A DNA stretch of 64,000 bases from Candidatus Methanophagales archaeon. GTDB lineage: Archaea > Halobacteriota > Syntropharchaeia > Alkanophagales > Methanospirareceae. Below, piece after piece: positions 1,241-19,869 of the stretch. Below the pieces are notes generated by a model, which had not been told where the DNA came from, ran no database searches, and was given only the letters and a program-made list of their open reading frames with translations. The stretch spans positions 444 through 64,443 of the forward strand of contig JAUVZJ010000006.1 in assembly GCA_030602585.1 (NCBI GenBank), written 5' to 3'. Every line of letters starts with the position of its first letter. Within the stretch, counting starts at the first letter, position 1. The position numbers and the translations under genes are program-made.

Positions 1241-3250
1241 ATGAACTCAAAAGACCCGCTAACAATTTTAACCACCGTGTTCAATCATAGCTCTTTTCGG
1301 TTCAATCAAAAAGAAATAATAGACAATGTTTTAACCCCGAAGAACACGCTTGCCATTCTACCCACGGGTGCCGGGAAGTCTATCTGTTTCCAAATACCTG
1401 CATTGATATTTGATGGATTGACAGTTGTGGTGAGTCCGTTAATCGCATTGATGAAAGACCAGGTGGACAATCTGAAGAAGAATGGGGTTCTTGAAGCGGC
1501 GTATATTAATTCCATGCTGGATTCCAGTTCAAAAGAACGGATATACGAGCAATTAAAGGAATCGAAATTGAAGATGTTGTATGTCGCTCCCGAAACATTC
1601 GTAGATAACAAATTGATGAGTATATTAAAGTCGTGTAATATCAGCCTGATAGCGATTGACGAGGTGCATTGCATTTCTGTCTGGGGTCATAACTTCAGAC
1701 CCGACTATTTACGACTGCAAGGTGTAATAAAGGCACTAAACAACCCCCCTCCGCCTGTGCTTGGATTGACTGCTACCGCCACTAAAACCGTTGAAGAGGA
1801 TATACAAAAACAATTGGGTATCAACTGTGACGTGTTCAAAGACAGTTTTGACCGTAAGAACCTGTTATTTTCCGTGCTCACCTTGAAAAGCGCCATTAGA
1901 AAAGAAGAGTTACTCAAAACGCTGTTAACACAACTCAAAGGCTCTGCTATCGTTTACGTCAATTTCACAAGAACCGCAGAAGAACTGGCTAAATATCTGG
2001 CTGGGGAGGGGTTGAGCGTATCGCATTATCACGGTCAAATAGCGGATAAAGAAGAAAGGAAGAGGATACAAAATGATTTTATAAGCGGTAAAACGAGAAT
2101 CGTGGTTGCCACCAATGCATTTGGGATGGGCATTGACAAAGAGGATATAAGGGCGATAATCCATTACAATCTGCCGAAATCTATTGAGAGCTATTATCAG
2201 GAGGTTGGGCGTGCGGGAAGGGATGGAAAGATAGCGAATTGCATCTTGCTTTATTCTAAAGGGGATGAGAGAAAACTAAAAGGATTGATAAAACGAAATA
2301 CGCCATCAGCAAAGCAAATTAAAGCAGTGCTTGACCTGTTGACAGAAGGGGTAGGTAAATTGAGTTATGTGAACGTGAAGAGGGTAGCAAACGATTTGGA
2401 GCTGAATGAAGTTCCCATCAGATTGATTTTGCATCATCTTGAGAGGCTGGTAGCGATAAAAACGTATTTCAGGATTTACAGACGTGCGGTGGTGAGAATG
2501 CAGAATGCAGACGTTAAGCCACTAAAATTTTATCAGCAAGAGGCGGAAGAGATAATCAGGAATGCGTATTTCAAGAGGTATTTGAATAGTTGGTTGGATT
2601 TGGAAGTGTTGAGCAGTTCGGTTAAAATATCCATTCTGGGGATAAACAATGTGTTGCGGGAGTTGAAAATTGCAGGGATAATAGAACTTGAAGAACGTGA
2701 TTTTTGCACGCCTATCAAAGTCAATCCAGGTATAAAAGACGTTGATATGAATGAGCTTCTTGAGATTTTCCGGCGCCTGGAAGAGAGCAATCTAAGAAAG
2801 GTCGAGAACGTGGTGGAATATGTGGAGAGTGAGGAGTGCAAGAGGAAGTTCATTTTGAATTATTTCGGTGAAGAGTATGGTGGGGAGTGCAATGCGTGCA
2901 GTGTTTGCAATCCGTTTTTGCGTCACATAGGAGAGGATGTTGAAGCGGAAGGAATACCAGTCACCGATGAGGGAGGGAAAGAAATAGATTCGCGGTTGCC
3001 GGTGAAAAGAGAGGAGGTAATTGGCGAATTCGTAAATTTGAGCGTGTTTGAAGCGTTGAAGAAGTGGCGAAAAAATATTGCGGCTGAGAGGAATATCCCG
3101 GCTTATTGCGTTTTTCACAATAGCACGTTAATCGGCATAGCAAATCAATTGCCGAAGACAAAGGAGGAGTTAGAGGGGATTAAAGGAATTGGAGAAAAGA
3201 AGATTGAATCTTATGGTGATGAGATATTAAAGATAGTGAACGGAAATTAA
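1241..3250 (+). CDS. recQ: RecQ family ATP-dependent DNA helicase with Zn-binding region and C-terminal HRDC domain
   Basis: LPTGAGKS, DEVHCISVWGHNFRPDY, LTATA, ATNAFGMGIDK, YYQEVGRAGRDG; C...CNACSVC; HRDC ALKKWR...PAYCVFHNSTL. Confidence 0.93.
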   Translation: MNSKDPLTILTTVFNHSSFRFNQKEIIDNVLTPKNTLAILPTGAGKSICFQIPALIFDGLTVVVSPLIALMKDQVDNLKKNGVLEAAYINSMLDSSSKERIYEQLKESKLKMLYVAPETFVDNKLMSILKSCNISLIAIDEVHCISVWGHNFRPDYLRLQGVIKALNNPPPPVLGLTATATKTVEEDIQKQLGINCDVFKDSFDRKNLLFSVLTLKSAIRKEELLKTLLTQLKGSAIVYVNFTRTAEELAKYLAGEGLSVSHYHGQIADKEERKRIQNDFISGKTRIVVATNAFGMGIDKEDIRAIIHYNLPKSIESYYQEVGRAGRDGKIANCILLYSKGDERKLKGLIKRNTPSAKQIKAVLDLLTEGVGKLSYVNVKRVANDLELNEVPIRLILHHLERLVAIKTYFRIYRRAVVRMQNADVKPLKFYQQEAEEIIRNAYFKRYLNSWLDLEVLSSSVKISILGINNVLRELKIAGIIELEERDFCTPIKVNPGIKDVDMNELLEIFRRLEESNLRKVENVVEYVESEECKRKFILNYFGEEYGGECNACSVCNPFLRHIGEDVEAEGIPVTDEGGKEIDSRLPVKREEVIGEFVNLSVFEALKKWRKNIAAERNIPAYCVFHNSTLIGIANQLPKTKEELEGIKGIGEKKIESYGDEILKIVNGN

Positions 3251-3296
3251 AGACAAAGATAAAATATACCTACCAAATTAGATACAGGATAGAACA

Positions 3297-6200
3297 ATGG
3301 AGAACATTGCCAATGTCATGGATAGGCATTCCCTGATGGAATTCCTGAACCGCTTGAATTATCAAACCGAAGAGGTCATCCTTGACAAAGAAATAGACTT
3401 AGACCTGCCAGAACGAGCTAAGGACATTATTAAATCCATTGCTCTCATAAGCGATTACAAAACTGACGGTACGCAATTCAGGATTTATATTATTGAAGCG
3501 GAACGCTTACGCCGAACTGACATAAGAACTGTTCTGGAACCTTTCTACACCGGACACCCGCAGGTAAATACCCTTTTTGTTTTTACCCCCGAGAAGTATA
3601 ATCCACTTGTTCTCGTAAGTCCTCAACGAGTTCTTTCCCCGGAAGATAGGACAAAGACAAAACTGAAACTCCGTATTCTCCGGATAGATCGGGATAATGT
3701 TTATCATACTGACTTGGAGGTTTTAGAAGCCTTGAAACTCACTCCGGGCGAAGCGGACCCTTCAGAAATCTGGGCAAAACATCGTGACGCCTTCAGCATC
3801 GAGAAGGTAACAGAGGAATTCTTCAAAACCTATAAAGACAAATTTGACCATCTTAAAGAAGCTTTAGAGTTGAATAAGAGAAAAATCATATTTTTTAAAG
3901 ACGAGAAATATCTTGAAACTTTCGCACAACGCATTCTCGGAAGGCTGATTTTTCTTTACTTCCTGCAAAAGAAAGTCTGGCTAAACAAGGATAAGAAGTT
4001 CGTAGGCAATTTGCTGGATAGAGCCGAAGAGGAACATAAGAATTTTTACAAGGAGTTTTTAGAACCGCTATTTTTTGAGGTGTTGAACGAGCAAAGACAT
4101 AACAGCGAGTCGCCTTTTGGAACAATTCCGTATTTAAATGGCGGGCTTTTTGAAAAGGATTATAATTTCGAGGTAAAGTTGCCAAACGGGATATTTAGGG
4201 AGATAATAGATTTCTTTAACCGCTATAACTTTACGGTTCAGGAGAACACGCCGTTAGAGGTGGAAGTGAGCCTTGACCCTGAACTGCTTGGTAAAATGTT
4301 TGAAAATATGCTTGCTGAGAAGGAGAGAGGCGAGAAGGGAACTTTCTACACTCCTCGCCCTATCGTGCATTATATGTGCAGGGAGAGCTTGAAAGAATAT
4401 CTTGCCGCTTTTACAGATATTGCGAGGTATAAAATCCTGACGCTCGTGGAAGATAGTAGCACAGGGGATTTATCTGGTGATGAAGCCGAGAAACTTTGCA
4501 AAGCGCTGGATGAAGTTCGGATTCTCGACCCGGCAGTGGGTTCAGGTGCTTTCCTCGTGGGAATGATGCACGAGATTATCAATCTAAAAACAGTCCTGAC
4601 GGATAAATTAAAGATAGCGGTAACGAATGCAGAGCTTAAAAGAGAGATTATTAAATCCAATCTTTATGGTGTGGATATAGAACCGGAGGCGATTGAGATT
4701 GCCAGACTGCGACTCTGGCTTTCGTTGGTAGTAGATGAAGAACTTGACGACGTGGAGCCATTACCAAACCTTGATTATAAGTTGCTCGTGGGAAACAGCC
4801 TCGTAGAGAGTTGGCGAGGAAAGAAATTACTGGGAAAGGAGGTGTATCAGAAAACCTTCGGAGAAGATGAAACACTGAAATTGATTGAGGAACTCAGGAA
4901 TCTGAAAGAGAAACTTCTGAATGAAACGAACACGGATGAGAAGAAGAAACATCGTGAGCGTTCAGAGGAAATAGAATGGCAGTTAATTGAGAAGGGACTA
5001 AGCGAAGAGGCAGAATGGAAAACAAGGCGGGCACTTGAAATAAGTGGAAAATACAAACAATACGAGCATCCAGAGCGTAAAATGTCGGCAAAAGAGAAAA
5101 AGGAATTGAAGAAATTGAGAGAAGAAGCGGAGAATGCGGGAAGATTTTTGGAAGATATAAAGAAATCAGGCGAAAAAGCATTTTTCCTGCCTCAGATACA
5201 TTTTGCCGAGGTGTTCACCGAAAGAGGAGGTTTTGATATTGCCATTGCCAATCCGCCGTACGTAAGAACGCAGAAACTCTCTAAATTACCATATCGAGAC
5301 GATTTAGAACTTCATTTTGGCTTTATTGATGACTTCTACGTGCATTTCACTTTCCGCGCTTTTGAGCTCGTAAGACCGAAGGGGATCGTAACGTTCATCA
5401 CGTCGGATACCTATCTCACGCTTGCATGGAAAGAGAGGATGAGAGAATTTTTGCAAGATAATCGGATTAGAAGGCTTATACTCACGCCAAAAGCTTTTCG
5501 GGCAACGGTTAATACTGCTATTTACATCACTCAGAAAGAACATCTTGCGGATTATAACTTCACGTTCCTGGATGCAAGAGAGGTTAGTGGCAATGAAGAA
5601 GGGAACTGGGAAGACAAACTCATCGTGTTTGAGGGATTGAAGGAGGTAAAGCAATACGATACGCAGAATCCTGTAAGGATCGGCGATAAGGAATTGGAAG
5701 TATCTTACAGTCGACAGGCAGATGTCGGGCAGTTCCGAGTGCCTGTGGAACTATACAAGAAAGCGATTAAGCGGGTATTTTTCTCGCCAACAGCGAAGAA
5801 CTTGAAGTTGTACGAGAAGTTCATGCCGATAATGAAAGAACTTCATGAGAAGTGGTGGGATAAGATAAAATCAAGCAAGGATATACAGAAGAACAAAAAG
5901 GAAATAGAGAAATATTTGAAGATGTTAAAGCCCGGCGACGTTACTCTTTTGGGATTGATTACAAATGGTGGGGTAGGCTTACAAACATCAGACAATGGAA
6001 GGTTTTTAGCAGTGCTCGAAGGCACGAAAGAGGCGAAAAGGATTGAGGAAAGGCTTGAAGAGTTTGAAAGGAAGTGGGAGAGGAAAGAGCCGAAAATATA
6101 TGAGAAATGTCAGGAATTGTTGGCAACCCATTCCAGAAACGATGCGCTGGATAAACTGAGAAAGGAATTTGAAGAGAAGATGTTAGGGTTTCCAAGAGGG

Positions 6201-7010
6201 TTCATCTACAAGGTGATCAAGAAAGAGGACGTTTTTGATGCGGCTTCTTATCTTGAGGGTCTTGCGCCTGAGATAAGGGATGTTATGCGAAGGGTGATAA
6301 TTTTTGGTGGTATTCCAGAAAAAGAAAGCGATGTGAAAAGTCTGCGGAAGCTACCGAAGTTGCCTGATGATTTGAAAACGTTGGATACGGACTTGAAAAA
6401 GAAGGTGGAGGAAGAGTATGGGAAGCTGAAAGAAAAAGGTAGATGGATAGCTTTTACCAGAGGTGGAGAAGCTGAAAATATATACTTGACCCTTACGGAT
6501 CGATTCATAGATTGGTCACGAGATAGTGTGAAGTGGCTATTCAATAATTCAGGAAAAAAGGGTTCCGGAATGCCGGTCATAAGAAATCCACACTATTATT
6601 TTACTGAAGGCGTAACTTACATAGACGTTGGTGGAGCCGAGATAAAAGCGAGAATTTTGCCTTCTTCAATCTACGACCACACAGCACATTCTTTTTTCCC
6701 TGACGAGAAGGACATCTCACCAAAGTATCTCTTAGGAATACTGAATACTACTTTTGCTTCTTATTTTGCAAATGAATATTTGAATCATACAATGCACTTT
6801 GAACTTAACGATATCCGATTGTTTCCCGTTGCCATTCCAACCGAGAGCCAGCGAAAAGAGATAGAAAGCCTCGTTGACAAAGCGATTGAGATACAAAAGA
6901 AGCGGTATGCCTCTGATAAAGAGGAAGAGAAATCGGAGTTCTGGAAAGAACTTCAGAGGGTGCAGGAACGAATAAATGGGGAGGTGGAGGGGATATATGC
7001 GGGAAGTTGA
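3297..7010 (+). CDS. Large N6-adenine DNA methyltransferase with target-recognition domain (Eco57I/type IIG-like, DrmMI-like)
   Basis: PYLNGGLF, GTFYTP, ILDPAVGSGAFL, YGVDI, IANPPY; TaqI-C-like end YLLGILNT...LFPVAIP. Confidence 0.88.
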   Translation: MENIANVMDRHSLMEFLNRLNYQTEEVILDKEIDLDLPERAKDIIKSIALISDYKTDGTQFRIYIIEAERLRRTDIRTVLEPFYTGHPQVNTLFVFTPEKYNPLVLVSPQRVLSPEDRTKTKLKLRILRIDRDNVYHTDLEVLEALKLTPGEADPSEIWAKHRDAFSIEKVTEEFFKTYKDKFDHLKEALELNKRKIIFFKDEKYLETFAQRILGRLIFLYFLQKKVWLNKDKKFVGNLLDRAEEEHKNFYKEFLEPLFFEVLNEQRHNSESPFGTIPYLNGGLFEKDYNFEVKLPNGIFREIIDFFNRYNFTVQENTPLEVEVSLDPELLGKMFENMLAEKERGEKGTFYTPRPIVHYMCRESLKEYLAAFTDIARYKILTLVEDSSTGDLSGDEAEKLCKALDEVRILDPAVGSGAFLVGMMHEIINLKTVLTDKLKIAVTNAELKREIIKSNLYGVDIEPEAIEIARLRLWLSLVVDEELDDVEPLPNLDYKLLVGNSLVESWRGKKLLGKEVYQKTFGEDETLKLIEELRNLKEKLLNETNTDEKKKHRERSEEIEWQLIEKGLSEEAEWKTRRALEISGKYKQYEHPERKMSAKEKKELKKLREEAENAGRFLEDIKKSGEKAFFLPQIHFAEVFTERGGFDIAIANPPYVRTQKLSKLPYRDDLELHFGFIDDFYVHFTFRAFELVRPKGIVTFITSDTYLTLAWKERMREFLQDNRIRRLILTPKAFRATVNTAIYITQKEHLADYNFTFLDAREVSGNEEGNWEDKLIVFEGLKEVKQYDTQNPVRIGDKELEVSYSRQADVGQFRVPVELYKKAIKRVFFSPTAKNLKLYEKFMPIMKELHEKWWDKIKSSKDIQKNKKEIEKYLKMLKPGDVTLLGLITNGGVGLQTSDNGRFLAVLEGTKEAKRIEERLEEFERKWERKEPKIYEKCQELLATHSRNDALDKLRKEFEEKMLGFPRGFIYKVIKKEDVFDAASYLEGLAPEIRDVMRRVIIFGGIPEKESDVKSLRKLPKLPDDLKTLDTDLKKKVEEEYGKLKEKGRWIAFTRGGEAENIYLTLTDRFIDWSRDSVKWLFNNSGKKGSGMPVIRNPHYYFTEGVTYIDVGGAEIKARILPSSIYDHTAHSFFPDEKDISPKYLLGILNTTFASYFANEYLNHTMHFELNDIRLFPVAIPTESQRKEIESLVDKAIEIQKKRYASDKEEEKSEFWKELQRVQERINGEVEGIYAGS

Positions 7011-7114
7011 GAAGTGTGAGATAAGAAAAATTTGCTGAAAAAAAAATTCGATAAAGGTTGAGTATAGCTTTAGTTGCGAAATATTTATATTGATCTTATA
7101 TATATTCCATTCAC

Positions 7115-9124
7115 ATGGGCAACATGGATATAGGTAGAGCTAAAAGCACAAGTCACTACACGATGACGATATCTAGGACTACGGTAGACAAGCTCGGCAT
7201 CAAGTTGTACGATAAGGCATCTGCAGTAGTTGGAGAACTTATCGCGAACTCTTACGACGCCGACGCAGAGAACGTAACGATTAAGATGCCTCTTAATAGA
7301 TGGTTAGCCACTAAATCAGGTGGTGATGTAGTTGATCAGGGGTTTGAAATCTTAGTAGAGGACGACTGACATGGAATGACCCCCGATGAGATCAATGAGT
7401 TTTATCTTAGGGTTGGAGCTAACGCTAGAGAAGACGACAGGAGAGGGCCTTATTCACGTGATAAAGAACGGGCAAGAATGGGCCGTAAGGGTATTGGAAA
7501 ACTGGCACCATTCGGTATCTGTAAAACTATCGAGGTCCAAACCGCAGGCGAAGAAAATGATGGAGATAACTTCAGGGTTGCACACTTCGTCATGAACTTC
7601 GACGACATTAACCAAGAGACGGATGAACCTTATCACCCAGAAATCGTTTCCGACGACGGCACCTTATCTCAAAAGAGAGGAACGATAATAAAACTTCGGA
7701 ATTTTTATCACAGACGCACCCCTGATGAAGAGACTTTTCACCGTCAGATTGCTAGGTCTTTCGGTACTAAACTGCCGGATTTTAAAATAAAAATTGAAAA
7801 CACAGAAAACGGGAACGTATCTGAGATAGGCGAATTAGATGTCGAGATCGAAGAGGAGACAAAAATAAATGTTGATGATAGGCCCCCCGTGACAATGGAG
7901 GACGGAACAACTTTGCCGGTGAAAGGTTGGGTGGCTTACACGAAGCATCCTTACAAAAACGAAGAAGTTGCAGGTGTCAGAATTTACACTAGAGGGAAGA
8001 TAGGAGCAAGTACTAGGGACTTCGGTCTGAAGGCAGGATTCACAGGTGAGCATACTCTTCGGTCTTATCTTGCTGGCGTTATACATGCAGAGTGGCTGGA
8101 CAAAGACGATGGCGAAGATCTCGTACACACTGGTCGACAGGATATCCTTTGGGCTTCCGAGGAAGGAACTGCGTTTATGAAATGGGGGCAGCAACTACTA
8201 AAAGAGCTGGCAACAAAATCTAGAACCCCTCTGAGAGAAAAAGCGTGGCGTGTGTTCTTAGAGCGGTCTAATTTGGAAGAAGAAGCAAAAGAACGATTTC
8301 ACGACAAAGAGGTTGTGAAGCAAGCTATGGTTGTTGGAAAAGTCATAGGCCAAGTTACCTCTTTAGATGACCTAACAGATGAAAGTTATACACAAAAAAT
8401 CAAAGAGTTAGTCCTGACAATAACGCCTCACAAGATGCTGGTGGACAAATTAAAAGAAGTCGAAGAAAAGGGAGTGGGGACTCCTTTAGGTGTTATCTCT
8501 GCTATCTTCAACGACGCCAAGGTTGCAGAAGCGTCCTCACTTGGTCAAGTCGCCATGGTACGAATTGACATCGTAGACAAACTGGAGCAGCATCTTCAAT
8601 CAGGAGCATCGGTAGATGAAAGTGCACTCCAAAAATTGATAGAGAGTGCATCTTGGCTGGTGGATCCCAGGTGGACTGTCTTACAAGCTAATAAGTCGTT
8701 CGAAACCCTCCGCTCTGCGTTTGAGACTTGGTACCGAGATCAACATGGAACAGAAATAACGACGACAACGTTAAGCGGTTTGCAGAGACCTGACTTTGTG
8801 ATGATGCACGTAGGGCGCGGTGTGGAAATTGTGGAAATTAAGAGGCCAAGACACGCGCTTATAGATGAAGAGTTTGAGAGACTGCGATCGTATATTGGGG
8901 CGTTGGATAGATTTCTGGAAGCAAATCCAAATTTTAAGGAGGATTTTCCAAAAGTACACGCCACATTGATATGTGACAGTTTAAGATTAGGAGCAACCCC
9001 TCAACTGGCCTACGATAAGCTGAAAGATGACAGAAAGTTAAAAAAGAAAACTTGGTGGGAAATCTTGCAAGACACGAAGAAAGTTAACCAAGATTTCCTC
9101 GATGCCCGCAGTCCATCTGAGTGA
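7115..9124 (+). pseudogene. GHKL (MORC/HSP90-like) ATPase fused to a PD-(D/E)xK nuclease, interrupted by an in-frame TGA at 7367-7369
   Basis: ELIANSYDADA; VEDD*HGMT in place of DxGxGM; GRKGIGKLA; C-terminal RPDF...VEIKRP; ORFs 7115..7369 and 7376..9124 share a frame. Confidence 0.85.
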
Positions 9125-9147
9125 TAACTCATTTTAGTCTACCAATT

Positions 9148-9843
9148 TTATTGTTTATCACTTAGCATTTTCAATGGGTATTTGCATAGGCGTACTAAAG
9201 GGCAAACGTCACAAAGAGGTCGTTTCTTACAGACCATTAATGCGAAGTCTAGTAGTGCCTCGTGATAAGTCGCTGCTCGCCCTTTTGGAACGAGTTTCTG
9301 AGAGATCTTTTTGATATCATCGTTATTTACCCCACAGGACTTTGGTAAGTCAAATATTCTAGTTAAAACGCGAACTACGTTGGTGTCGACAATTGGAATA
9401 TCTCGACGAAAGCCAAAACAGAGAATCGCAGAGGCAGTGTAAGACCCCACTCCTGGAAGTTGCATCAGCTCGTCTCGATTATTTGGTACGTTTCCGCCGT
9501 ACTTCTGGCATATTGTCTTCACTGCGCTGACTATCCAAGGCAGCCTCTTTTTCAATCCCATTGGACGGCTGATTTGCTCGAGTTGTGTCAGATCCGCCGA
9601 AGCAAGTTTTTCAGGTGTTGGGAAACGTGTAATGAAAGAAGGATAGAATTTAGCGACCCTGTCGGCGGGAGTGCGTTGGAGGAAGAACTCTGCTACGAGC
9701 ACGCGGTAAGGATTAGGATTCACCCTCCAGGGGAATGTCTTTTTATTACTTCGATGCCAAACGAGCAAAGTCCTCGTGATAGTTTGTTCGCGTGATTTCA
9801 CGATTTCACCTCTTCCGTTACGATAAATGGCCGTACTCCTCAA
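9148..9843 (-). CDS. HhH-GPD DNA glycosylase, probably T:G mismatch-specific (Mig-like)
   Basis: FPWR, VAEFFLQRT, LPGVGSYTA, VDTNVVRV, 4Fe-4S motif C..KRPLC..CPL...C; no MutY NUDIX-like tail; overlaps a C5-MTase gene. Confidence 0.8.
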   Translation of the reverse strand: MRSTAIYRNGRGEIVKSREQTITRTLLVWHRSNKKTFPWRVNPNPYRVLVAEFFLQRTPADRVAKFYPSFITRFPTPEKLASADLTQLEQISRPMGLKKRLPWIVSAVKTICQKYGGNVPNNRDELMQLPGVGSYTASAILCFGFRRDIPIVDTNVVRVLTRIFDLPKSCGVNNDDIKKISQKLVPKGRAATYHEALLDFALMVCKKRPLCDVCPLVRLCKYPLKMLSDKQ

Positions 9844-10924
9844 CGAAGTATCGAACTAAGTTTTGGATGAAGAGCACCGGAACGGCATTTCCAATATACC
9901 GATCGGCCGAGGCAGTTTCGGTAGGGAAAACGAAGTGGTCAGGGAACGTCTGGAAGCGTGCAGCCTCTCTTGGAGTAATGCCTCTGTCCTGTTCAGGGTG
10001 TATGAATCGCCCGCTACTGGGACAAGTACAACGAGACGTTATAGTGGGCGATGGCTGGTTCCACCACATTCTACCGTAAACGTTCTCGGCTCCCCCATTT
10101 CTGAGTTTTCGGTGGCATCTAAGCCAAAGCCGTCGTGAAAGGTCTTTTCGGCTCCCGCCGTCCTTGGGAACGTTTTTAATTATTTCGAGTACTTTTTGAG
10201 TGTGCTTACGAGCTTTGTGATTTGGAATTACGGAATCCCGCTCACCCGGTTCGAGCGGTGGAAGATCAGCTATGGTCTCCCTCACGGTAACACACGGCAG
10301 CTTATCCCCCTCGTCAACGAATTTTGGATCGGAGTGTGTAGGTGGTGGCATTAATAGCTCTTCTTTACCGTTTGTGCCTTCCACGCTGAAAGCTATTACT
10401 CTCTTACGGTGTTGAGGAACTCCGTAGTCAGCAGCGTCGAGAATTTTGCAAACAGACTCGTAGCCCATCTCGTGCATTCGTTTGAGGTATAGGTCCAGGT
10501 ACCTACCACCTTCAAGCGTGGCGATACCAGGAACATTTTCGAATAGCACGACTTTAGGGCGAATCTCACGAACCCGCTTGAGGAACGCCACGATGAGGGC
10601 ATCTTTATCGTCTCCCTTTGGCAGTCCTCGAGTCCGCCGAAGACTGCTGAAACTTTGGCAGGGAGGGCACCCCACGACAAAATCTACATCGTGTTTTTTC
10701 AGTCCGTAGTGTTTTAAGATCTCGCTACCTTTTACGTGCTTTAAGTCACCACAAATTGGTTTTAAGTCCAGATTCTCCGGGTAAATTTTACACGCGGTGG
10801 AGTCGATATCGACAGCACCTACGATCCGACAACCAGCGAGTTCAAGACCCAGAGATGCGCCTCCACATCCGCAAAAGAGGTCGATCACATTGTAACACGG
10901 CGATATTATTTTCGACATTTGCAC
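9818..10924 (-). CDS. dcm: DNA (cytosine-5)-methyltransferase
   Basis: DLFCGCGG, GCPPCQSFS, FENVPG, YGVPQHRKR, REAARFQTFPD, IGNAVP. Confidence 0.95.
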   Translation of the reverse strand: MQMSKIISPCYNVIDLFCGCGGASLGLELAGCRIVGAVDIDSTACKIYPENLDLKPICGDLKHVKGSEILKHYGLKKHDVDFVVGCPPCQSFSSLRRTRGLPKGDDKDALIVAFLKRVREIRPKVVLFENVPGIATLEGGRYLDLYLKRMHEMGYESVCKILDAADYGVPQHRKRVIAFSVEGTNGKEELLMPPPTHSDPKFVDEGDKLPCVTVRETIADLPPLEPGERDSVIPNHKARKHTQKVLEIIKNVPKDGGSRKDLSRRLWLRCHRKLRNGGAENVYGRMWWNQPSPTITSRCTCPSSGRFIHPEQDRGITPREAARFQTFPDHFVFPTETASADRYIGNAVPVLFIQNLVRYFVEEYGHLS

Positions 10925-11020
10925 TATATTACATTTCCCTTCTTTTATTTTCTTTTATTTGTTTTTATATTCATCCCTGTTCTAAAAAATAAATGTTAAT
11001 TGAGTGGATAAGGATGCAAA

Positions 11021-14000
11021 ATGACCGAAGGACTCCCCGACATCATTGACAACTCAGAAGGCAAAAAACTTGGAGCGGTGCTGAACCAACTGCTGGAGCA
11101 AGGCGAGCCAGTAGTCCGCATCGTAACCGCATATTTCAACCACGAAGGTTTTGCCGTTTTAAAAAACGGGCTTGAAAACGCAAAAGAGTTCAAGTTACTA
11201 CTTGGAAAGGAGCAAGAACGTGAATTTGTCATTGGCAATAGATTGTGGGACGAGATAGAAATAGCAATGAATAAGAAGGAAACGCCTCCACTATTGAATG
11301 AAATCGTGGATTTTATAAATCAGGAGAAAGTTGAGGTCAGAGCGCTAAAGTTCAAAAATAAATTTTTGCACGGAAAAGCATATATCATTGACGGTATTCC
11401 GGTGATGGGTGGCGTTGGAATCGTTGGTTCCTCAAATCTCACCTACGCAGGTCTTACCGCAAATTACGAACTGAATGCGGTTTTGAAACAAGAATCCGCA
11501 GTGAAGGAATTAATAATATGGTTTGATGGCTTCTGGAACGAAGCCGAAGATTATAAAGATGAACTTCTCGACATCTTCACGGCTTTTACTTCCAAATACA
11601 CACCATACGAAGTTTACGTCAAAATTCTATACGAATATTTCAGAGACCGGTTCGAACTGGAAATAAGTCCAAAGGAGGAGACGCCAAGCCCGATTATTCT
11701 CGCGGATTTCCAGCACGATGGCTATCAGAATGCGAAGGATATACTCGAAAAATACGGTGGCGTAATACTTGCCGATTCTGTTGGGCTCGGCAAGACTTAC
11801 TTAGCTCTTAAACTCCTCGACGATTATGCCTACAAACTACGGCAAAAAGCGCTTCTTATTTGTCCCGCACAACTTAAAGAAGTCCTATGGGAGCCCGAAC
11901 TCAGGCGTGCAAGCATACGTGCAGACATCGAGAACATGGAGTTCGTGGGCAGAGATTCGTTCAGCGGTGAGATTGAGAATTATGCAGACTATGACCTCAT
12001 CGTAATAGACGAATCACATAATTTCAGAAACGCAAAAACAAACAGGTGGGAGAATATTTTTCAACTTCTCACCACTGGAAAACCCAAGAAATTGATTCTT
12101 CTAACTGCAACTCCTGTTAACAATTCCGTATTTGACCTTTACAACCAGCTCAGACTCATCGTAAAGGATAACGATGATTTTTTTGCAGGGAGTGGAATAA
12201 GAAATCTTAAAGGATATTTTCAAAAAGCCGAAGCGGATAAGGAAAATCTTTACGATATTCTTGAGGAAATTGCGGTAAGACGAAGCCGATACTTCATAAA
12301 AAAGAATTATCCTGATGCAGAAATAGATGGAAAAGCCGTCCAATTTCCAGAAAGAGAACTCCATACCGTCAGATATAGCCTTGAGAAAAGTTATAAAGGG
12401 CTATACAGAGAGGTTGCCAGCACAATTGAAAACCTCTACCTTGCACCGTACAATCCAGAAGCTTACAGAAAAGGGATGGTAAGTCCTGAGTTTGAGGGAC
12501 TTAAAGATAGGCTGCGGAAAGAAGGTTTGAGCGAAAAAGACGCACACAATTATATGATGAAACTCGGTAGGGGCACAGCACTCGTTCAGATTATGAAAAC
12601 CCTGTATCTAAAACGACTTGAAAGCAGTATTGAAGCCTTAAAAATAAGCCTTGTAAGGCAAAGAGATTTTCAGAAAAAATTCTCGCAGCTTTTGGAGAAA
12701 AATAAACTTCTGGATTCTTCTACATATCGCAAATTCTTTACGTGGAATGGGGTGGATGACCAAGAGAACGAGGTTGATGTAGAAAAGGCGATTTCACAAC
12801 TCCCTGAAGCTGACCCGAATCTTTACGACTTAGACACGTTCAAGAAATTCGTGAGTAAAGATGTAAAAGTGCTGGATGGCATAATCAAGAAACTCGAAAA
12901 GATAAAGGTTCAGGAGGATGACAAATTAAAAGAGTTAAAGAAACTTCTTGTTGGTGAGTTAAAGGGCAATAAAGTTGTCGTTTTTACTTATTTTAAGGAT
13001 ACAGCTCGCTATCTTTACCACCAATTAGGAGGAAGACTTGAAGATGGCAAGCGTTTGCCAGAAGGTGAAAGTTTCCTCAGAGAACTTGGTCATGAGCGCA
13101 TCAGTATCGTAGATAGTATTGTTGACCCAAGAGAGAGAAAAGACCGAATCATTCGGTTCGCACCAGAGGCAAACGCGACAAATGAAGAGATAAAGGATTC
13201 TATAAAGGGAACAGCCCGTGAAATTGACCTTCTGATTAGCACTGACGTTTTGAGTGAGGGACAGAATCTACAGGATTCTGACACGGTGATTAACTACGAT
13301 CTACACTGGAATCCTGTGAGAATGATTCAACGTGCAGGTAGAATTGATAGAATAGGGTCGCCATACAATAGGGTATTCAGCTACAATTTCAATCCCGAAG
13401 ATGCGCTTGAAGATATTCTTCACTTAGTAGAACGCATTTACAATAAATTAGAAGGTATAAATCGAAGCGTTGGACTGGATTCTTCGGTTATGGGTGAGAG
13501 ACCCAATCCACAAGATTTCAATGCCATACGGATGATTGCACAAGAAGATAAGAGTATTTGGGACGAACTTGAGCAATTATCAGAGATAGATGTCGGTGAA
13601 TTTTTAAAACAGGAACTTATTGACTTCATAAGACGTATTGGAGAGGAAAAACTGAGACGCATTCCGCTTGGGATTGGCAGTGGTATACGAAGCGAAGGGC
13701 GGAAAGGGCTTTTTGCAGCGATAAAAGACGAGAAAAATAACCGCCATTTCTGGCTATTCTACGATATAGGGAAGAGCACCATTTTAGACAGGAAACTTGA
13801 GGTCATCAAGCTTATTCGATGCCGAGAGAATGAGAAGCGTGTCGAACCCGACTTTGATGTGTATGCAATTCTGGAAAAACTGAAAAAACATATTGTTAAC
13901 CAAACGAGGGTAGTGAAGCATAGACTTTCTGTTTTACCACATCCGCAAAACCATGTCATGAATTGGCTACAAGCATTGCCTCCTTCAGAGGATCGAAAAC

Positions 14001-14218
14001 TGCTTATTGACTATTTTTCAAAGCCTCTGAGTGGATTGCAGATTAGGGAGCTAAGACGGTTGTGGCGAGAGAATAGGCAGAATAGTGAAGAAAACCTTCC
14101 CGCTATTTTACATCAGTTTGCTGAGACACATCCGCACATCATCGAAGTTCAGCCCTCTTCTATTTCTGAAATCTCTGAGGAAGACCTTCAACTTGTCGGG
14201 TGGATTGCACGGGTATAG
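11021..14218 (+). CDS. PLD-nuclease / SNF2-type helicase fusion (DrmD-like)
   Basis: FLHGKAYI...VGSSNLT...NYELN; LADSVGLGKT, VIDESHNFRN, LTATPVNN, STDVLSEGQNLQ, WNPVRMIQRAGRIDRIG. Confidence 0.9.
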   Translation: MTEGLPDIIDNSEGKKLGAVLNQLLEQGEPVVRIVTAYFNHEGFAVLKNGLENAKEFKLLLGKEQEREFVIGNRLWDEIEIAMNKKETPPLLNEIVDFINQEKVEVRALKFKNKFLHGKAYIIDGIPVMGGVGIVGSSNLTYAGLTANYELNAVLKQESAVKELIIWFDGFWNEAEDYKDELLDIFTAFTSKYTPYEVYVKILYEYFRDRFELEISPKEETPSPIILADFQHDGYQNAKDILEKYGGVILADSVGLGKTYLALKLLDDYAYKLRQKALLICPAQLKEVLWEPELRRASIRADIENMEFVGRDSFSGEIENYADYDLIVIDESHNFRNAKTNRWENIFQLLTTGKPKKLILLTATPVNNSVFDLYNQLRLIVKDNDDFFAGSGIRNLKGYFQKAEADKENLYDILEEIAVRRSRYFIKKNYPDAEIDGKAVQFPERELHTVRYSLEKSYKGLYREVASTIENLYLAPYNPEAYRKGMVSPEFEGLKDRLRKEGLSEKDAHNYMMKLGRGTALVQIMKTLYLKRLESSIEALKISLVRQRDFQKKFSQLLEKNKLLDSSTYRKFFTWNGVDDQENEVDVEKAISQLPEADPNLYDLDTFKKFVSKDVKVLDGIIKKLEKIKVQEDDKLKELKKLLVGELKGNKVVVFTYFKDTARYLYHQLGGRLEDGKRLPEGESFLRELGHERISIVDSIVDPRERKDRIIRFAPEANATNEEIKDSIKGTAREIDLLISTDVLSEGQNLQDSDTVINYDLHWNPVRMIQRAGRIDRIGSPYNRVFSYNFNPEDALEDILHLVERIYNKLEGINRSVGLDSSVMGERPNPQDFNAIRMIAQEDKSIWDELEQLSEIDVGEFLKQELIDFIRRIGEEKLRRIPLGIGSGIRSEGRKGLFAAIKDEKNNRHFWLFYDIGKSTILDRKLEVIKLIRCRENEKRVEPDFDVYAILEKLKKHIVNQTRVVKHRLSVLPHPQNHVMNWLQALPPSEDRKLLIDYFSKPLSGLQIRELRRLWRENRQNSEENLPAILHQFAETHPHIIEVQPSSISEISEEDLQLVGWIARV

Positions 14219-14303
14219 AAAAACAATAGCTAAAGAAGAAATATCAAATGGATTTTTAAACGCAGATATTTGCGGTGTTTCGCATCTCATGTGGGGGAAA
14301 TTT

Positions 14304-15605
14304 ATGAGGGAGAGCAAGATGAAAGAAGAGCCGATAATGAAGGGATTTGGGGTTCAGAGGAAAAGAAAAGGCAGGGAAAAGCTGATTGTATATACAGATG
14401 GAGCAAGCAGAGGAAACCCCGGACCTGCTGGCTTCGGTATTGTGATATGCGATGAGTCGGGAAAAATAGTAAAAAAATATGGAGAATTTATTGGCAACGC
14501 AACGAACAACATTGCAGAATACCGGGCATTGATAAAAGCATTAGAACTGGCGAGCAGTTTTCCAGTAAGCGAAATAAAATGCTTTTCGGACAGCGAGTTA
14601 ATGGTTAGGCAACTTAATGGTGAATACAGGGTGAAAAACGAAAAATTAGGTGAGTTATTTCTTCAGGTAAGAGAAAAAGAGAAGCGATTTGAAAAGATAA
14701 ATTATTTTCACATGCCGAGAGAGGAAGACCTTATAAAAAGGGCGGATAAATTAGCTAATCTCGCAATAGATGGGAAAATGTCTGAGGAGAGCGAATTAGA
14801 GAAAAGAAAGGAAAAAGAAATAGCGAAAGTGAAAGGCGATGAAGATGCTATGGATTATTATAAAAGGGGCAAGGATTTATTTTTAGCTTACAAGCACGAC
14901 CTATCGCCTGAGCGTGTGAAGGAAATCGAGTCACTGCTTAGGAAAGCAATAGAACTAAATCCCAAGCTGTGGGCTCCTCATTACTTCTTAGGCGAGTTAT
15001 TCTATTTGAAGAAGCGATTTCCTGATGCAAAAGCGGAATTTGAGAAAGCTCTTGATAAAAAACCGGATAGTGTGCCTGCCAAGTATTATTTGACTCAAAT
15101 TAGCAGAATTGAATCTGGTATTTCATTTCCAAGAGATTTAGATGAAGTTAAAAAAATGGCAAATAACCCGGTGTTGCTAAATCACGCATTGATAGAATGG
15201 TTTGAAAATACCCTTAGAGAACTGATTCAGGGAGTATTAAGGGATGCGTACGGAGAAGAATGGTGGTGGGAAGGAGTTCCAAGCGATGTGAGGAAGAAAT
15301 ATGGAGAAAGAGTTCAAGAAACTCGGTTAAAAGAGGAAAGGGGACTGCCCGAATTGTATTTTATTGACTTTTATGATTATGGAAAGATTATCGAGGCTAA
15401 GACTAATAAAGGGGTCTTCAGTTCTTATATGGAAAATCCGAAAGAGTGGAAGAAGAGATTAGACGATTTGGAACCAATCCGAAATGCAATAATGCATTGC
15501 AGAGGGCAATATCTTTCTGAGGAAACAATGTCAAGACTGAAGGAAAGCTGCATTGAACTACAAAAATTAATTGAGAAAGTGAGGAAAGGTGCTTTTCAGA
15601 AATGA
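14304..15605 (+). CDS. RNase HI - TPR - Swt1-like HEPN fusion protein
   Basis: YTDGASRGNPGPAG, TNNIAEY, SDSELMVRQLNGEYRVK, ADKLAN (DEDD set intact); TPR motifs KAIELNP..APHYFLG and FEKALDKKPD; FENTLRELI..YGEEWW...IRNAIMH. Start at ATG 14304 or 14319 avoids overlap with the upstream gene. Confidence 0.85.
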   Translation: MRESKMKEEPIMKGFGVQRKRKGREKLIVYTDGASRGNPGPAGFGIVICDESGKIVKKYGEFIGNATNNIAEYRALIKALELASSFPVSEIKCFSDSELMVRQLNGEYRVKNEKLGELFLQVREKEKRFEKINYFHMPREEDLIKRADKLANLAIDGKMSEESELEKRKEKEIAKVKGDEDAMDYYKRGKDLFLAYKHDLSPERVKEIESLLRKAIELNPKLWAPHYFLGELFYLKKRFPDAKAEFEKALDKKPDSVPAKYYLTQISRIESGISFPRDLDEVKKMANNPVLLNHALIEWFENTLRELIQGVLRDAYGEEWWWEGVPSDVRKKYGERVQETRLKEERGLPELYFIDFYDYGKIIEAKTNKGVFSSYMENPKEWKKRLDDLEPIRNAIMHCRGQYLSEETMSRLKESCIELQKLIEKVRKGAFQK

Positions 15606-15694
15606 TATGGAAAGAGGATAACATCCACCCCTCTATGTTTCCGGATAATAACATATCTTTATCTTTTGATTTTAACTTTAATTATATAGTAGAA

Positions 15695-15847
15695 ATGGAA
15701 GAAAGAAGAAAGAAAGTGGGGAAAATAGTTTCTGCCGATGTATCAAAGCCAAAAGGGAAAGTGGGGAAAATAGTTTCTGCCGAAATCTTGCGACGGAGTG
15801 AAGAGGAAAATGGTGGTAAGAGTAAAGGTCAGATTGAAAGCGCTTAA
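15695..15847 (+). CDS. Small hypothetical protein with a duplicated KVGKIVSA motif
   Basis: ATG 15695; 27-bp exact direct repeat at 15712-15738 and 15757-15783. Confidence 0.4.
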   Translation: MEERRKKVGKIVSADVSKPKGKVGKIVSAEILRRSEEENGGKSKGQIESA

Positions 15848-16238
15848 AGGGGAAAAAGGAAAAACAATAGAGGATATAGCATTACTCAATGCTGGATATG
15901 AGTCGAAAAATCCGGAGATGGTGATACCAGTAAATATCGCAGAGAAACTCGGTCTATGGCCAAAACTGCCAGAAGGAACAGAAGTGGAGGATTATGAAGT
16001 TGCAGGTGGGACAAAAATAAGGATTCACTACATTGAAGATTGTTTGGAAACGCAGGTAATTACAGAAGATAAGGATTCCGAACCCGTTGAAGTACCTGCG
16101 GTGATACTGGAAGGTGAAAAGGAGATTCTGGCAAGCGATAAGTGGATAAGTGCGCAAAAAATCGTTTTGGAGGATGTGGGCAAAGGGATTTGGAGATTTA
16201 GGGGAGAAGAAAAGAGGAGGAGTGAAAAATCCACCTGA
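15810..16238 (+). CDS. Archaeal hypothetical protein, retropepsin (clan AA)-like fold suspected
   Basis: VRVKVRL...ALLNAGYE..PEMVIP..IAEKLGLWP pattern; Asn at the usual catalytic Asp position. Confidence 0.5.
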   Translation: MVVRVKVRLKALKGEKGKTIEDIALLNAGYESKNPEMVIPVNIAEKLGLWPKLPEGTEVEDYEVAGGTKIRIHYIEDCLETQVITEDKDSEPVEVPAVILEGEKEILASDKWISAQKIVLEDVGKGIWRFRGEEKRRSEKST

Positions 16239-16319
16239 AAAAGTCTCAAAATTCTTCACGATTAGAATGGAGGAAAGCATTTCTTTGCATAACCTCTGAC
16301 ATACTTTTATATTAGAAAA

Positions 16320-17846
16320 ATGCACTGGTCTTTAGCAATCGCAAAGGAGATAGTAGAGCGAAGGAAAGAGAAAAAGCATGTTCTTGCTACCGGTATTACA
16401 CCCTCTGGCGATATTCACGTGGGAAACCTGCGAGAGATAATAATAGGAGAGGCAGTGCATTCTGCTCTTGTGGACATGGGCGTGGATGCGAGACTCATCT
16501 ACGTCGCAGACACTTTCGACCCGCTCAGGAGAAGATACTCGTTCCTTCCTGGAGAATACGAAGCGCATGTAGGAAAGCCATTATCAGCGATACCAGACCC
16601 TGAGGGATGCCATTCGTCATACGCAGACCATTTTCTACAGCCGTTCCTTGATTCTTTAGACGTTTTGGGCATAAAAATAGAGATTTTCAAAGCCGATGAG
16701 ATGTATAAGTCGGGTATGTACGTGGACGTGATAAAGGAAGCGATTTCGAGAAGAGAAGATTTGTCGCGGATAATAGAGGAAGTCTCCGGTAGGCAACTGC
16801 CGGAAGAATGGATGGCTTTTAATCCGCTTTGTGACGCCTGTGGCAGAATCACAACCGCAATTGTAAAGCGATACGATACAGAAAAGGAGGAAGTGTATTA
16901 CGAGTGCGAATGTGGAAACAATGGTGCTGCTTCGTTTAAAGCTGGCGGTAAATTAGCATGGCGAGTGGACTGGGCAGCGAGATGGAAAATCCTTGGCGTT
17001 ACAATTGAGCCTTTTGGCAAAGACCATGCCGCTCCCGGCGGCTCTTTTGACACGGGAAAAAGAATCTCCTTGGAAATCTACGATTACGAAGCACCGTATC
17101 CTATCCCTTTTGAGCACATCCTCCTAAAGACGAAGGCGGTAGAAGGAACGAAGGCGAAAGTAACGGCTATGTCATCATCCAGGGGAACGAACGTTCCGGT
17201 GCACGCGATATTAGAAGCAGTGCCACCCGAAATTTTAAAGCACGTCATTTCGAGAGTGCGACCGGATAAGCACATAGAATTTAACCCTTCATTACCGCTA
17301 CTCAACCTGATAGATGAATACGAGCGTGAAATAGGCGAAATAGGACGCGGTGTTGCGGGAAAAATTCCTTTCCGGCATTTCATCACCCTTGTGCAAATTG
17401 CACGAGGTGATTTCTCTGAACTCCTGAACGTCATCGAGAGAAGTGGGTATGAGGTTCGTGAAGAAAACGAAGAAGAAATAAAGGGGATAGGTGAAAAAGC
17501 ACGGTATGTGGAAAATTGGCTGCGTGGATATGCACCTCCAGGCTTGAAGTTCGAATTGCAACCGGCGTTACCGGCAGAGGAACTAAAAAGCTTGTCCGAG
17601 GCACAAAAAAAGGCATTGAAGCTAATGGCACAGGAAATAAAGGAAGGTAAGACCCTGAGTGCTGACGATTGGCATGATAAAATATATGAAGTAGCCTCCG
17701 GTACAAACATAGAAGCGAAAGAGATTTTTAGGGCAATTTATGTGGTTCTGTTGAAAAAGTCTTCGGGACCTCGTGCAGGCTGGCTTCTCGCATCTCTGGA
17801 TACTGAATTCATAAGGGAAAGGTTTGAGGCGGCGGCACGGATATGA
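16320..17846 (+). CDS. lysS: Lysine--tRNA ligase, class I
   Basis: GITPSGDIHVGNLRE, GKLAWRVDWAARW, EPFGKDH, MSSSRG, GPRAG. Confidence 0.96.
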   Translation: MHWSLAIAKEIVERRKEKKHVLATGITPSGDIHVGNLREIIIGEAVHSALVDMGVDARLIYVADTFDPLRRRYSFLPGEYEAHVGKPLSAIPDPEGCHSSYADHFLQPFLDSLDVLGIKIEIFKADEMYKSGMYVDVIKEAISRREDLSRIIEEVSGRQLPEEWMAFNPLCDACGRITTAIVKRYDTEKEEVYYECECGNNGAASFKAGGKLAWRVDWAARWKILGVTIEPFGKDHAAPGGSFDTGKRISLEIYDYEAPYPIPFEHILLKTKAVEGTKAKVTAMSSSRGTNVPVHAILEAVPPEILKHVISRVRPDKHIEFNPSLPLLNLIDEYEREIGEIGRGVAGKIPFRHFITLVQIARGDFSELLNVIERSGYEVREENEEEIKGIGEKARYVENWLRGYAPPGLKFELQPALPAEELKSLSEAQKKALKLMAQEIKEGKTLSADDWHDKIYEVASGTNIEAKEIFRAIYVVLLKKSSGPRAGWLLASLDTEFIRERFEAAARI

Positions 17847-19421: not shown

Positions 19422-19869
19422 GTGGTTATCATTAGTTTTCGAGTTCGATTTCTTTTAGTTTTTTCGCCGAAATATCGAGGAAAGGTATTGGACGGAGAAG
19501 TAGCTGAAGTAGCGGAAGAAATTATTAGGGAAACCTGCAAAGAGATTGATATTGAAATCATAGACATTGGTGTGAATGTAGACCACGTTCACCTTTTTAT
19601 CAAATATCCTCCAAAGTATTCCGTTAGCTGGATAGCGAAACGGATAAAGGGGAGAAGCAGTAAGCTATTGAGGGATAGATTTCCACATCTTAAGGTGTGG
19701 TGCCCGGACCACCTGTGGGCGCCTTCTTGCTATCACTAAAACTTTTTTAAAAAAAAAGTTTATCAACAAACGTTTAGAAAAAGTTTGACCAAAAACGCTT
19801 GGCAGCTTCGCAGTAGGGCAAGGATGGGTAGTGGTGGAGAGGTATATATCGGGGCAGAAGGGGCATAGT
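19422..19869 (+). pseudogene. tnpA: IS200/IS605 Y1 transposase TnpA remnant, interrupted near its C-terminus
   Basis: VFSPKYR, DHVHLF (HUH), KRIKGRSS, LWAPSCYH*; after ~74 bp of repeat DNA, AVGQGWVVVERYISGQ resumes with the catalytic Tyr. Confidence 0.85.

Follow-up and report, generated by a model that had tools for sequence, protein, structure and literature searches.

A gene joining RNase HI, TPR, and HEPN domains

We analyzed a 64,000-nucleotide (nt) stretch, here called the window, of a draft genome of a Candidatus Methanophagales archaeon (GCA_030602585.1, contig JAUVZJ010000006.1, positions 444 to 64,443, forward strand; genome G000; 89 contigs; 92.7% complete). At 14304..15605 (+), the window carries a gene that encodes a type-1 RNase H (RNase HI), a linker helix, tetratricopeptide repeats (TPRs), and a Swt1-like HEPN domain in a single chain. 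A preliminary description made from the sequence letters had read this order of domains in one frame; the open reading frame (ORF), Pfam, a homologue alignment, and an AF2 structure model agree with it, as does the recurrence of the 433-amino-acid (aa) protein in related genomes. The gene lies between a RecQ-family helicase gene and a class I lysyl-tRNA synthetase (LysRS) gene, and restriction-modification (R-M) genes and a PLD(HKD)-Snf2 helicase gene stand between RecQ and the fusion.

The open frame runs uninterrupted from 14085 to 15605 (+), and the ATG at 14304 gives the 433-aa protein. The start is uncertain: TTG 14193, ATG 14304, ATG 14319, and ATG 14337 are all candidates, and a 470-aa database entry (P0002) implies the first of them. 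Homologues start at about residue 27, and residues 1 to 23 are disordered in the AF2 model (predicted local distance difference test [pLDDT] score, <50). Possible expression signals of the gene's own lie at 14253..14297 (+), namely, TTTTTAAA at 14253-14260 (44 nt upstream of ATG 14304) and GTGGGGG at 14291-14297 (6 nt upstream), as judged by reading the sequence. An Rfam scan of 14000-16400 returned nothing at an E value of ≤0.1. The AF2 model of the 433-aa protein (mean pLDDT, 84.7; predicted template modeling score [pTM], 0.43) indicates confident domains in a loose mutual arrangement.

The type-1 RNase H domain occupies residues ~25 to 160 (14376..14783, +), on the basis of Pfam, PDB sequence matches, Foldseek, and alignment. 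RVT_3 matches residues 31 to 153 (E, 9.9e-20; 71.1 bits versus a cut-off of 21.6), and RNase_H also exceeds its cut-off (46.5 versus 25.8 bits). The four catalytic residues are D32 (14397-14399), E72 (14517-14519), D96 (14589-14591), and D148 (14745-14747), which we take to be equivalent to E. coli D10/E48/D70/D134. They are kept in all 12 RNase H-bearing rows of an alignment of 24 homologues (alignment A1, 23 rows of which cover the HEPN motif), in agreement with the intact DEDD residues reported earlier. D96 aligns with the residue that differs between two LC11-RNase H1 structures, 3u3g and the hybrid co-crystal 4h8k, the latter of which has N at this site. PDB sequence matches of this part were 3u3g, 4h8k, 3hst, and 4e19, and Foldseek aligned it to Halobacterium RNase H1 (4e19_A) with an E value of 1.8e-11 (TM, 0.94 on target; root mean square deviation [rmsd], 1.2; 132 columns). 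By its signature, the fusion carries a catalytically complete type-1 RNase H, with predicted cleavage of RNA:DNA hybrids.

A long predicted helix (residues 142 to 196; 14727..14891, +) bridges the final helix of the RNase H and the initial TPR in the AF2 model; confidence is low at residues ~160 to 180 (pLDDT of 54 to 58 in blocks 161-180). The TPR region (residues ~179 to 275; 14838..15128, +) contains ~2.5 to 3 repeats according to Pfam and VIA-align, matching the two to three first counted. One TPR is clear by Pfam (TPR_2 on 226-255; 24 bits, under the cut-off of 27). VIA-align superimposed the TPR part on 1na3_B with a Z score of 15.5 (86/86 residues; rmsd, 1.8), and its structural matches are designed and natural TPRs, as expected for a superhelical TPR segment.

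The Swt1-like HEPN domain (residues ~288 to 427; 15165..15584, +) is recognized by Pfam, PADLOC, ESM Atlas, and alignment. HEPN_Swt1 (PF18731) matches residues 297 to 423 with 30.4 bits (cut-off, 27.5) and with 33.3 bits in the genome-wide profile search, where it is the sole Swt1-like HEPN of this genome. The PADLOC model PDC-M34B matches residues 287 to 414 (E, 4.8e-21; 73 to 75 bits), and the ESM Atlas neighbors of residues 285 to 433 are HEPN_Swt1 clusters (score, 0.93). Residues 289 to 427 are all-helical in the AF2 model. The Rx4H motif, R393-N-A-I-M-H398, lies at 15480..15497 (+), exactly where the preliminary description had placed an intact RNAIMH. Its R393/H398 pair is kept in 23 of the 23 covering rows of alignment A1, E301 and R305 of the first HEPN helix are invariant there, and the domain is 87% identical to that of genome G033. 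A HEPN-only profile gave no meaningful match to PDB sequences (best E, 0.009, a designed protein). In a sample of 401 genomes of the phylum, this profile matched strongly (>180 bits) only within this family, and nine other genomes gave weak Swt1-like matches (≤72 bits). PDC-M34 is a two-gene candidate system in PADLOC; the B-like domain is present here, and the partner gene PDC-M34A (model PDLC04589) had no match in the 92.7%-complete genome, nor in control genomes.

The fusion recurs in related genomes

The region from 13900 to 16400 is spanned without an indel by contigs of two runs from one study, one of which may be the source sample. The contig of the second run differs at 13 single letters over 2.5 kb. 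Eight of these fall within 15486-15554, a 70-nt stretch at and beyond the Rx4H motif (five synonymous changes plus A395S, M409I, and S415N), a cluster that looks like a small recombination tract. The A395S variant is the natural residue in P0004 and P0007.

We compared 68 genomes of the order, 23 of them of high quality. A single uninterrupted fusion frame is present in four of the 68, each from a different genus (G000, G033, G055, and G041). Near-full-length collinear copies with one in-frame stop each (G039, TGA; G038, TAA) bring the number of genomes with such copies to six, and G048 and G045 carry collinear, frameshifted copies. The same architecture is found in at least 13 further 90%-identity protein clusters among the 120 listed (398 to 423 aa; at least 93% query coverage), which come from several sources, some labelled Methanophagales. 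A distant fused form (P0027 and its cluster member P0268; 42% identity) has the source labels of a Thermoplasmatota metagenome bin. A profile search with the TPR-HEPN alignment yielded 85,418 matches at an E value of ≤0.001, mostly generic TPRs, of which ~15 were usable as single-stretch, full-profile matches. The preliminary description had held that a fusion unique to this assembly, with no reads across the junction, would speak against its proposal; the fusion recurs in four genomes, and the contigs of two runs span the junction. We conclude that the fusion is a real gene and no assembly artefact.

Purifying selection and module exchange

Per-domain dN/dS values were estimated from codon alignments by the Nei-Gojobori method (NG86); the segments are 100 to 140 codons long, and the figures are rough. 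Between G000 and G033, the values were 0.18 (RNase H), 0.23 (TPR), and 0.09 (HEPN); between G000 and G055, they were 0.20, 0.23, and 0.18, respectively. Purifying selection acts on each of the three parts in intact copies (dN/dS, 0.09 to 0.23), and the HEPN values of 0.09 to 0.18 indicate that this domain is constrained at least as much as the RNase H. The TPR is the most divergent segment of the fusion (pN, 0.25 to 0.26, versus 0.06 to 0.12 in the flanking domains).

Synonymous divergence within genus g8 is mosaic. The dS values for the RNase H, TPR, and HEPN parts were 0.22, 1.17, and 0.86 between G041 and G039 and were 0.25, 0.02, and 0.12 between G039 and G038, a pattern that points to exchange of the TPR-HEPN part by recombination within the genus. 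The TPR-HEPN module is also found on its own, after HEAT repeats (P0020, P0023, and G040), and after a Cys-rich segment with extra TPRs (P0031, P0034, P0036, P0122, P0123, and P0252); the Cys-rich N-terminal segment is Zn-ribbon-like, as judged by eye. One Zn-ribbon-TPR-HEPN gene (G035) adjoins LeuRS, and a link of the module to aminoacyl-tRNA synthetases was considered; none of three orthologues (G021, G029, and G018) has such a neighbor, and we regard the G035 arrangement as coincidence. About 4 kb from this G035 paralogue lies a pair consisting of a classical HEPN (PF05168) and a nucleotidyltransferase (L035:12870-13669).

The fusion belongs to a RecQ-LysRS locus

The RecQ-family helicase gene (1241..3250, +) is supported by Pfam (DEAD/Helicase_C/RecQ_Zn_bind/HRDC), synteny, and NCBIfam recQ_fam (404 bits versus a cut-off of 219.8), with a score under the RecQ equivalog cut-off. 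The class I LysRS gene (16320..17846, +) was identified by Pfam tRNA-synt_1f and synteny. The ORFs at the loci of 18 relatives were compared with the window using blastp. RecQ lies directly upstream of the fusion, of an RNase HI-only form, or of a remnant in 10 of the 18 loci (G033, G039, G038, G040, G048, G045, G036, G021, G037, and G020), and the spacing to the downstream gene in relatives is often a 4-nt overlap or a gap of <60 nt. Class I LysRS lies downstream in eight (G041, G039, G040, G036, G037, G027, G003, and G020).

The gap between RecQ and the fusion in the window is the R-M/HKD-Snf2 block at 3297-14218, and among the genomes compared such a block occurs there only in G000 and G055. 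The G055 genes lie on one contig in the order RecQ, type IIG enzyme, Mrr-like gene, HKD-Snf2, fusion, and AdoMet synthetase, and the frames of HKD-Snf2 and the fusion overlap by 19 nt. G057, G062, and G056 have HKD-Snf2 orthologues (82 to 86% identical); the sequence downstream of them, over at least 1.4 kb, contains no fusion. G057 (locus L093), where the fusion is missing, retains both the divergent C5 cytosine methylase Dcm (90% identical to that of the window) and the helicase (84%), which argues that the conserved partner of the helicase is the methylase and not the fusion. The preliminary description had assigned the gene to the edge of a defence island, directly after a PLD-helicase. 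The position is correct (HKD-Snf2, 11021-14218); membership in the island is not supported, given the RecQ and LysRS neighbors of the relatives, the block wedged in only in G000 and G055, the HKD-Snf2 orthologues without a fusion, and the missing PDC-M34A. By synteny, the fusion belongs to an old RecQ-LysRS locus into which the defence genes appear to have been inserted later, and its adjacency to the PLD-helicase island is secondary.

The inserted block comprises, in order, a type IIG R-M enzyme (3297-7010); a BbrUII/HgiDII-family restriction enzyme that is apparently split into a short HATPase-like N-terminal piece (7115-7369) and a main ORF (7376-9124); a MutY/Nth-like HhH-GPD enzyme (9148-9843), labelled 'type II nicking endonuclease' by PADLOC and overlapping the C5 methylase; Dcm (9818-10924); and the PLD(HKD)-Snf2 helicase (11021-14218). 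The glycosylase-methylase pair (9148-10924) may include a mismatch-repair companion of the methylase, and the Dcm/HKD-Snf2 pair (9818-14218) may be a two-gene methylase and PLD-helicase system. Elsewhere in the genome lie a second HKD-Snf2-like gene (G000:C19:3157-5724; 36% identical) and a second RecQ-like helicase (G000:C67:12846-13868; 44% identical). RecQ is 669 aa long in the window and in G031; most orthologues in relatives (e.g., L027, L032, and L040) are 780 to 817 aa long, with ~100 extra residues ahead of HRDC.

Two small ORFs separate the fusion from LysRS. The first (15602-15847; 81 aa), whose ATG overlaps the fusion stop (ATGA), had no family match and no homologue in the relatives' loci. 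The second (15798-16238; 146 aa) matched nothing in Pfam, NCBIfam, or PADLOC and likewise lacks a counterpart in those loci; its ESM Atlas neighbors are archaeal hypothetical-protein clusters (0.96), and leads resembling clan-AA aspartic proteases are weaker (0.88). In G041 (L026:2184-2780) and G037 (L032:8610-9206), the fusion or RNase HI gene is followed by a 198-aa ORF ahead of LysRS; the two copies are 93% identical, have no Pfam match, and are not represented in the window. An ORF for an IS200-like Y1 transposase (19422-19739; Pfam Y1_Tnp; E, 5.8e-27) follows LysRS at a distance of ~1.6 kb. The ORFs flanking the fusion in the window include no NTP_transf_2 or Polbeta domain of the kind expected in a HEPN-MNT toxin-antitoxin pair. 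Nor was there an RnlA-family Pfam match at an E value of ≤0.01 that would mark an RnlA/LsoA system, and neither downstream ORF belongs to a recognized family.

Loss and decay among relatives

The congener G031, whose RecQ and LysRS are 93% and 97% identical to those of the window, joins RecQ directly to LysRS. When its junction was compared with the window by blastn, homology ended at 3262 and resumed at 16316; in place of the 13,053-nt block at 3263..16315 (R-M/HKD-Snf2 genes, fusion, and the two small ORFs), G031 has 82 nt. A stretch of 31 of these 82 nt aligns to window positions 15617-15647, just after the fusion stop and within the first 15 codons of the 81-aa ORF (26/31 identical; score, 35; maximum score in 200 shuffled controls, 29). 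This possible scar is a weak hint that the block was deleted in G031 rather than gained in the window, i.e., that loss may be favored over joint gain. RecQ is also joined directly to LysRS in G042. Within genus g12, three genomes (G060, G059, and G053) join RecQ directly to AdoMet synthetase, where G055 has the island and the fusion.

Seven genomes (G036, G037, G021, G027, G003, G004, and G006) carry RNase HI alone, 64 to 76% identical, and the stand-alone RNase HI of relatives is syntenic with the fusion, occupying the same slot. G040 has an RNase HI and a separate HEAT-TPR-HEPN gene, and TPR/HEPN remnants without RNase H occur in G016, G020, G008, and others. Of the 68 order genomes, 30 have an RVT_3-type RNase H (10 of the 23 high-quality genomes), and 49 have RecQ. 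The fusion is the sole type-1 RNase H of G000; a check for a separate housekeeping rnhA, suggested at the outset, found no second copy. An RNase HII, the usual housekeeping RNase H of archaea, is encoded on another contig.

Sequences in a tree of the RNase H domain group by genus, and fused, interrupted, split, and stand-alone forms occur side by side in the g8 clade; the fused G041 sequence is sister to the stand-alone G037 sequence (support, 90/89). On this mixture, the simplest reading is an old fusion whose tail was probably lost repeatedly. The whole-domain losses among relatives are not explained by draft errors. Taken at the sequence level, the gene is accessory, i.e., patchy, dispensable, and often degraded, and appears to be inherited vertically at the RecQ-LysRS locus. 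The preliminary description had named one further outcome that would count against a sensor-effector, that the gene is the only, vertically inherited RNase HI, with a HEPN that has decayed in relatives. This proved partly true: the domain is the sole type-1 RNase H, it is syntenic with stand-alone RNase HI, and the TPR-HEPN part has decayed or been lost in many relatives. The HEPN is, on the other side, intact and constrained in four genomes.

Relation to known systems

Parts of a survey of HEPN domains (Anantharaman 2013, PMC3710099) describe 'two-headed RNases' of the RNase LS family that unite RNase H and HEPN, with the RNA of RNA:DNA duplexes as their proposed target. In E. coli, both the activation of the HEPN toxin RnlA and the recruitment of its antitoxin depend on RNase HI (PMC5308261). 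HEPN RNases as a rule act as dimers; RnlA is one example (PMC8266594). The fusion resembles RNase LS (RnlA-LsoA) and the RNase HI-RnlA pair in combining an RNase-H-type module with a HEPN RNase. It differs from RnlA in its Swt1-like HEPN, with no RnlA-type Pfam match at the above-mentioned threshold. It differs from the RNase LS fusions in that its RNase H is a canonical archaeal/actinobacterial-type RNase HI and not a caulimovirus-like module, in the TPRs between the domains, in the archaeal host, and in that no RnlB-like antitoxin gene is evident.

The HEPN itself is like the Swt1-like family (PF18731 and PDC-M34B) in its above-cut-off Pfam score, its Rx4H motif, and its PDC-M34B match. Prokaryotic members (Ava_2192-type) are described in parts of PMC3710099 as fused to an AAA+ ATPase or located in R-M operons; the partners here are RNase HI and TPRs, and PDC-M34A was not found. 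Eukaryotic Swt1 is different again, being a PIN domain with a probably inactive HEPN according to the same parts of that survey. Stand-alone RNase H1 proteins (4e19, 3u3g/4h8k, the N-terminal domain of Rv2228c [3hst], and Sulfolobus tokodaii 2ehg) are 38 to 44% identical to the RNase H part (TM, 0.90 to 0.94 on target) and share the four acidic residues; the 270-aa TPR-HEPN extension sets the fusion apart from them. Rv2228c is fused to an acid phosphatase instead, by its NCBIfam name. TPRs and HEPN share a chain in the LA2681 family and animal DZIP3, which are among the TPR-HEPN families listed in the relevant parts of PMC3710099; these are, by description, other HEPN families and have no RNase H.

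Our literature search, which did not extend to supplementary tables (those of PMC3710099 and PMC13385816 included), found no description of the RNase HI-TPR-Swt1-HEPN architecture or of its RecQ-linked locus, in keeping with the earlier remark that the architecture is not known from a characterized system. Searches for papers on PDC-M34 and on Swt1-like HEPN, HEPN_Swt1, or PF18731 found none. The variable hotspots of anaerobic methanotrophic archaea of group 1 (ANME-1) are described as defence-rich, with R-M and toxin-antitoxin genes, in parts of a 2026 paper (PMC13385816); those parts, supplements excluded, mention neither RecQ nor this architecture. The components and the idea of RNase H and HEPN cooperation are already known; the RNase HI-TPR-Swt1-HEPN fusion was not found described.

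A candidate two-headed RNase

We consider it an even bet that the product of this gene is an accessory RNase of ANME-1-type archaea with two heads in a single chain, with a conflict- or stress-type role somewhat likelier than one in routine maintenance. The RNase H head would bind RNA:DNA hybrids (candidates are R-loops, primers, and replication or reverse-transcription intermediates) and nick their RNA strand, which would bring the protein to these structures. The HEPN tail would, as in other HEPN RNases, dimerize to form a composite R/H site and cut single-stranded RNA, and the TPR segment could gate or dimerize the HEPN or bind a protein ligand. The protein would be the covalent equivalent of RNase HI and the HEPN toxin RnlA of E. 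coli, the former of which is needed to activate the latter, and its role might be restriction of invading elements or regulated RNA shut-down. The two-headed precedents and the RNase HI dependence of RnlA make the coupling of the two domains plausible. The patchiness, decay, module exchange, and PADLOC homology tilt the balance toward a role in conflict.

Several observations weigh against this interpretation. Many of the decayed copies come from draft metagenome bins, and the stops or frameshifts in G038, G039, G045, and G048 could be assembly errors. No conserved antitoxin-like or sensor partner gene was found among the relatives' loci, and the stable position beside RecQ and an aminoacyl-tRNA synthetase fits maintenance as well. 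The Zn-ribbon-TPR-HEPN paralogues sit in varied housekeeping contexts with no conserved partner. PDC-M34 is an unvalidated candidate system, the A gene of which is absent from this genome. Foldseek (pdb) and a wide VIA-align search with the TPR-HEPN model returned TPR matches only, covering model residues 1 to 96 of 167. The activity, dimer state, and role of the fusion protein are predictions.

A maintenance role without any part in defence is possible, though we think it doubtful. The protein would act with the upstream RecQ to resolve R-loops or transcription-replication conflicts, the RNase H removing RNA from the hybrid, the HEPN trimming the free nascent-RNA tail, and the TPRs docking on a replisome or RNA polymerase partner. 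Such a role would suit the RecQ gene directly upstream in 10 of 18 loci, with frames often overlapping or nearly abutting; the vertical descent, with an RNase H tree grouped by genus; the stand-alone RNase HI in the same slot in seven genomes; purifying selection on every domain; the paralogous TPR-HEPN genes among housekeeping genes; and the status of the fusion as the genome's sole type-1 RNase H. It fits less well with a gene that is dispensable within its genus (G031 and G042), with the 38 of 68 order genomes that have no type-1 RNase H at all, and with a RecQ that is itself patchy (49/68). The TPR-HEPN part has, moreover, been repeatedly decayed or swapped, and its HEPN subfamily is related to a defence-candidate family (PDC-M34B).

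The boldest form of the conflict hypothesis, which we regard as unlikely, is a single-protein, hybrid-sensing abortive-infection system of archaea. RNase HI would detect hybrids of viruses, plasmids, or retroelements, and the fast-diverging, recombining TPR would license HEPN dimerization into a collateral RNase. If true, the E. coli RNase HI-RnlA circuit would have a fused counterpart complete in one protein, with a housekeeping-type RNase HI co-opted as an immune sensor.

It is quite improbable that RNase HI alone is functional and that the TPR-HEPN tail is a silent or decaying appendage. The clean loss of the tail in the seven RNase HI-keeping genomes and its decay in others would agree with this, as would the eukaryotic Swt1 HEPN, described as probably inactive in parts of PMC3710099. 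However, the Rx4H motif, E301, and R305 are invariant or nearly so, the HEPN dN/dS (0.09 to 0.18) is as low as or below that of RNase H, and the domain is 87% identical to that of G033. More improbable still is that the fusion works as the effector for the neighboring PLD(HKD)-Snf2 helicase or for the entire island. HKD-Snf2 does lie directly upstream in both G000 and G055, with the 19-nt frame overlap in the latter, and in both genera a comparison with congeners shows the block and the fusion either both present or both missing. Yet RecQ, and no HKD-Snf2, directly precedes the G033 fusion, the interrupted copies of G039, G038, G048, and G045, and the two-gene form of G040, and the G041 fusion adjoins neither gene. 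HKD-Snf2 orthologues stand without a fusion in G057 (which, like the window, keeps the divergent Dcm), G062, and G056, and the possible 31-nt scar in G031 hints at loss and not at joint gain. The chance that a draft of 89 contigs produced a chimera, or that the frame is a read-through of two genes, is negligible given the same frame in four genomes of four genera and in at least 13 further protein clusters from several sources and the junction spanned without indels by the contigs of two runs.

As this case shows, a gene bordering a defence island may have resided at the locus before the island and need not be a member of it. What lies downstream of RecQ varies among ANME-1 genomes, with R-M genes gained and the fusion lost, which fits the hotspots reported in parts of PMC13385816. 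With an accessory two-headed RNase as the preferred reading, the natural fusion of RNase HI and HEPN offers independent 'Rosetta-stone' support for a functional link whose only genetic demonstration to date concerns E. coli RnlA, and it provides a compact protein for asking whether hybrid recognition controls a HEPN nuclease.

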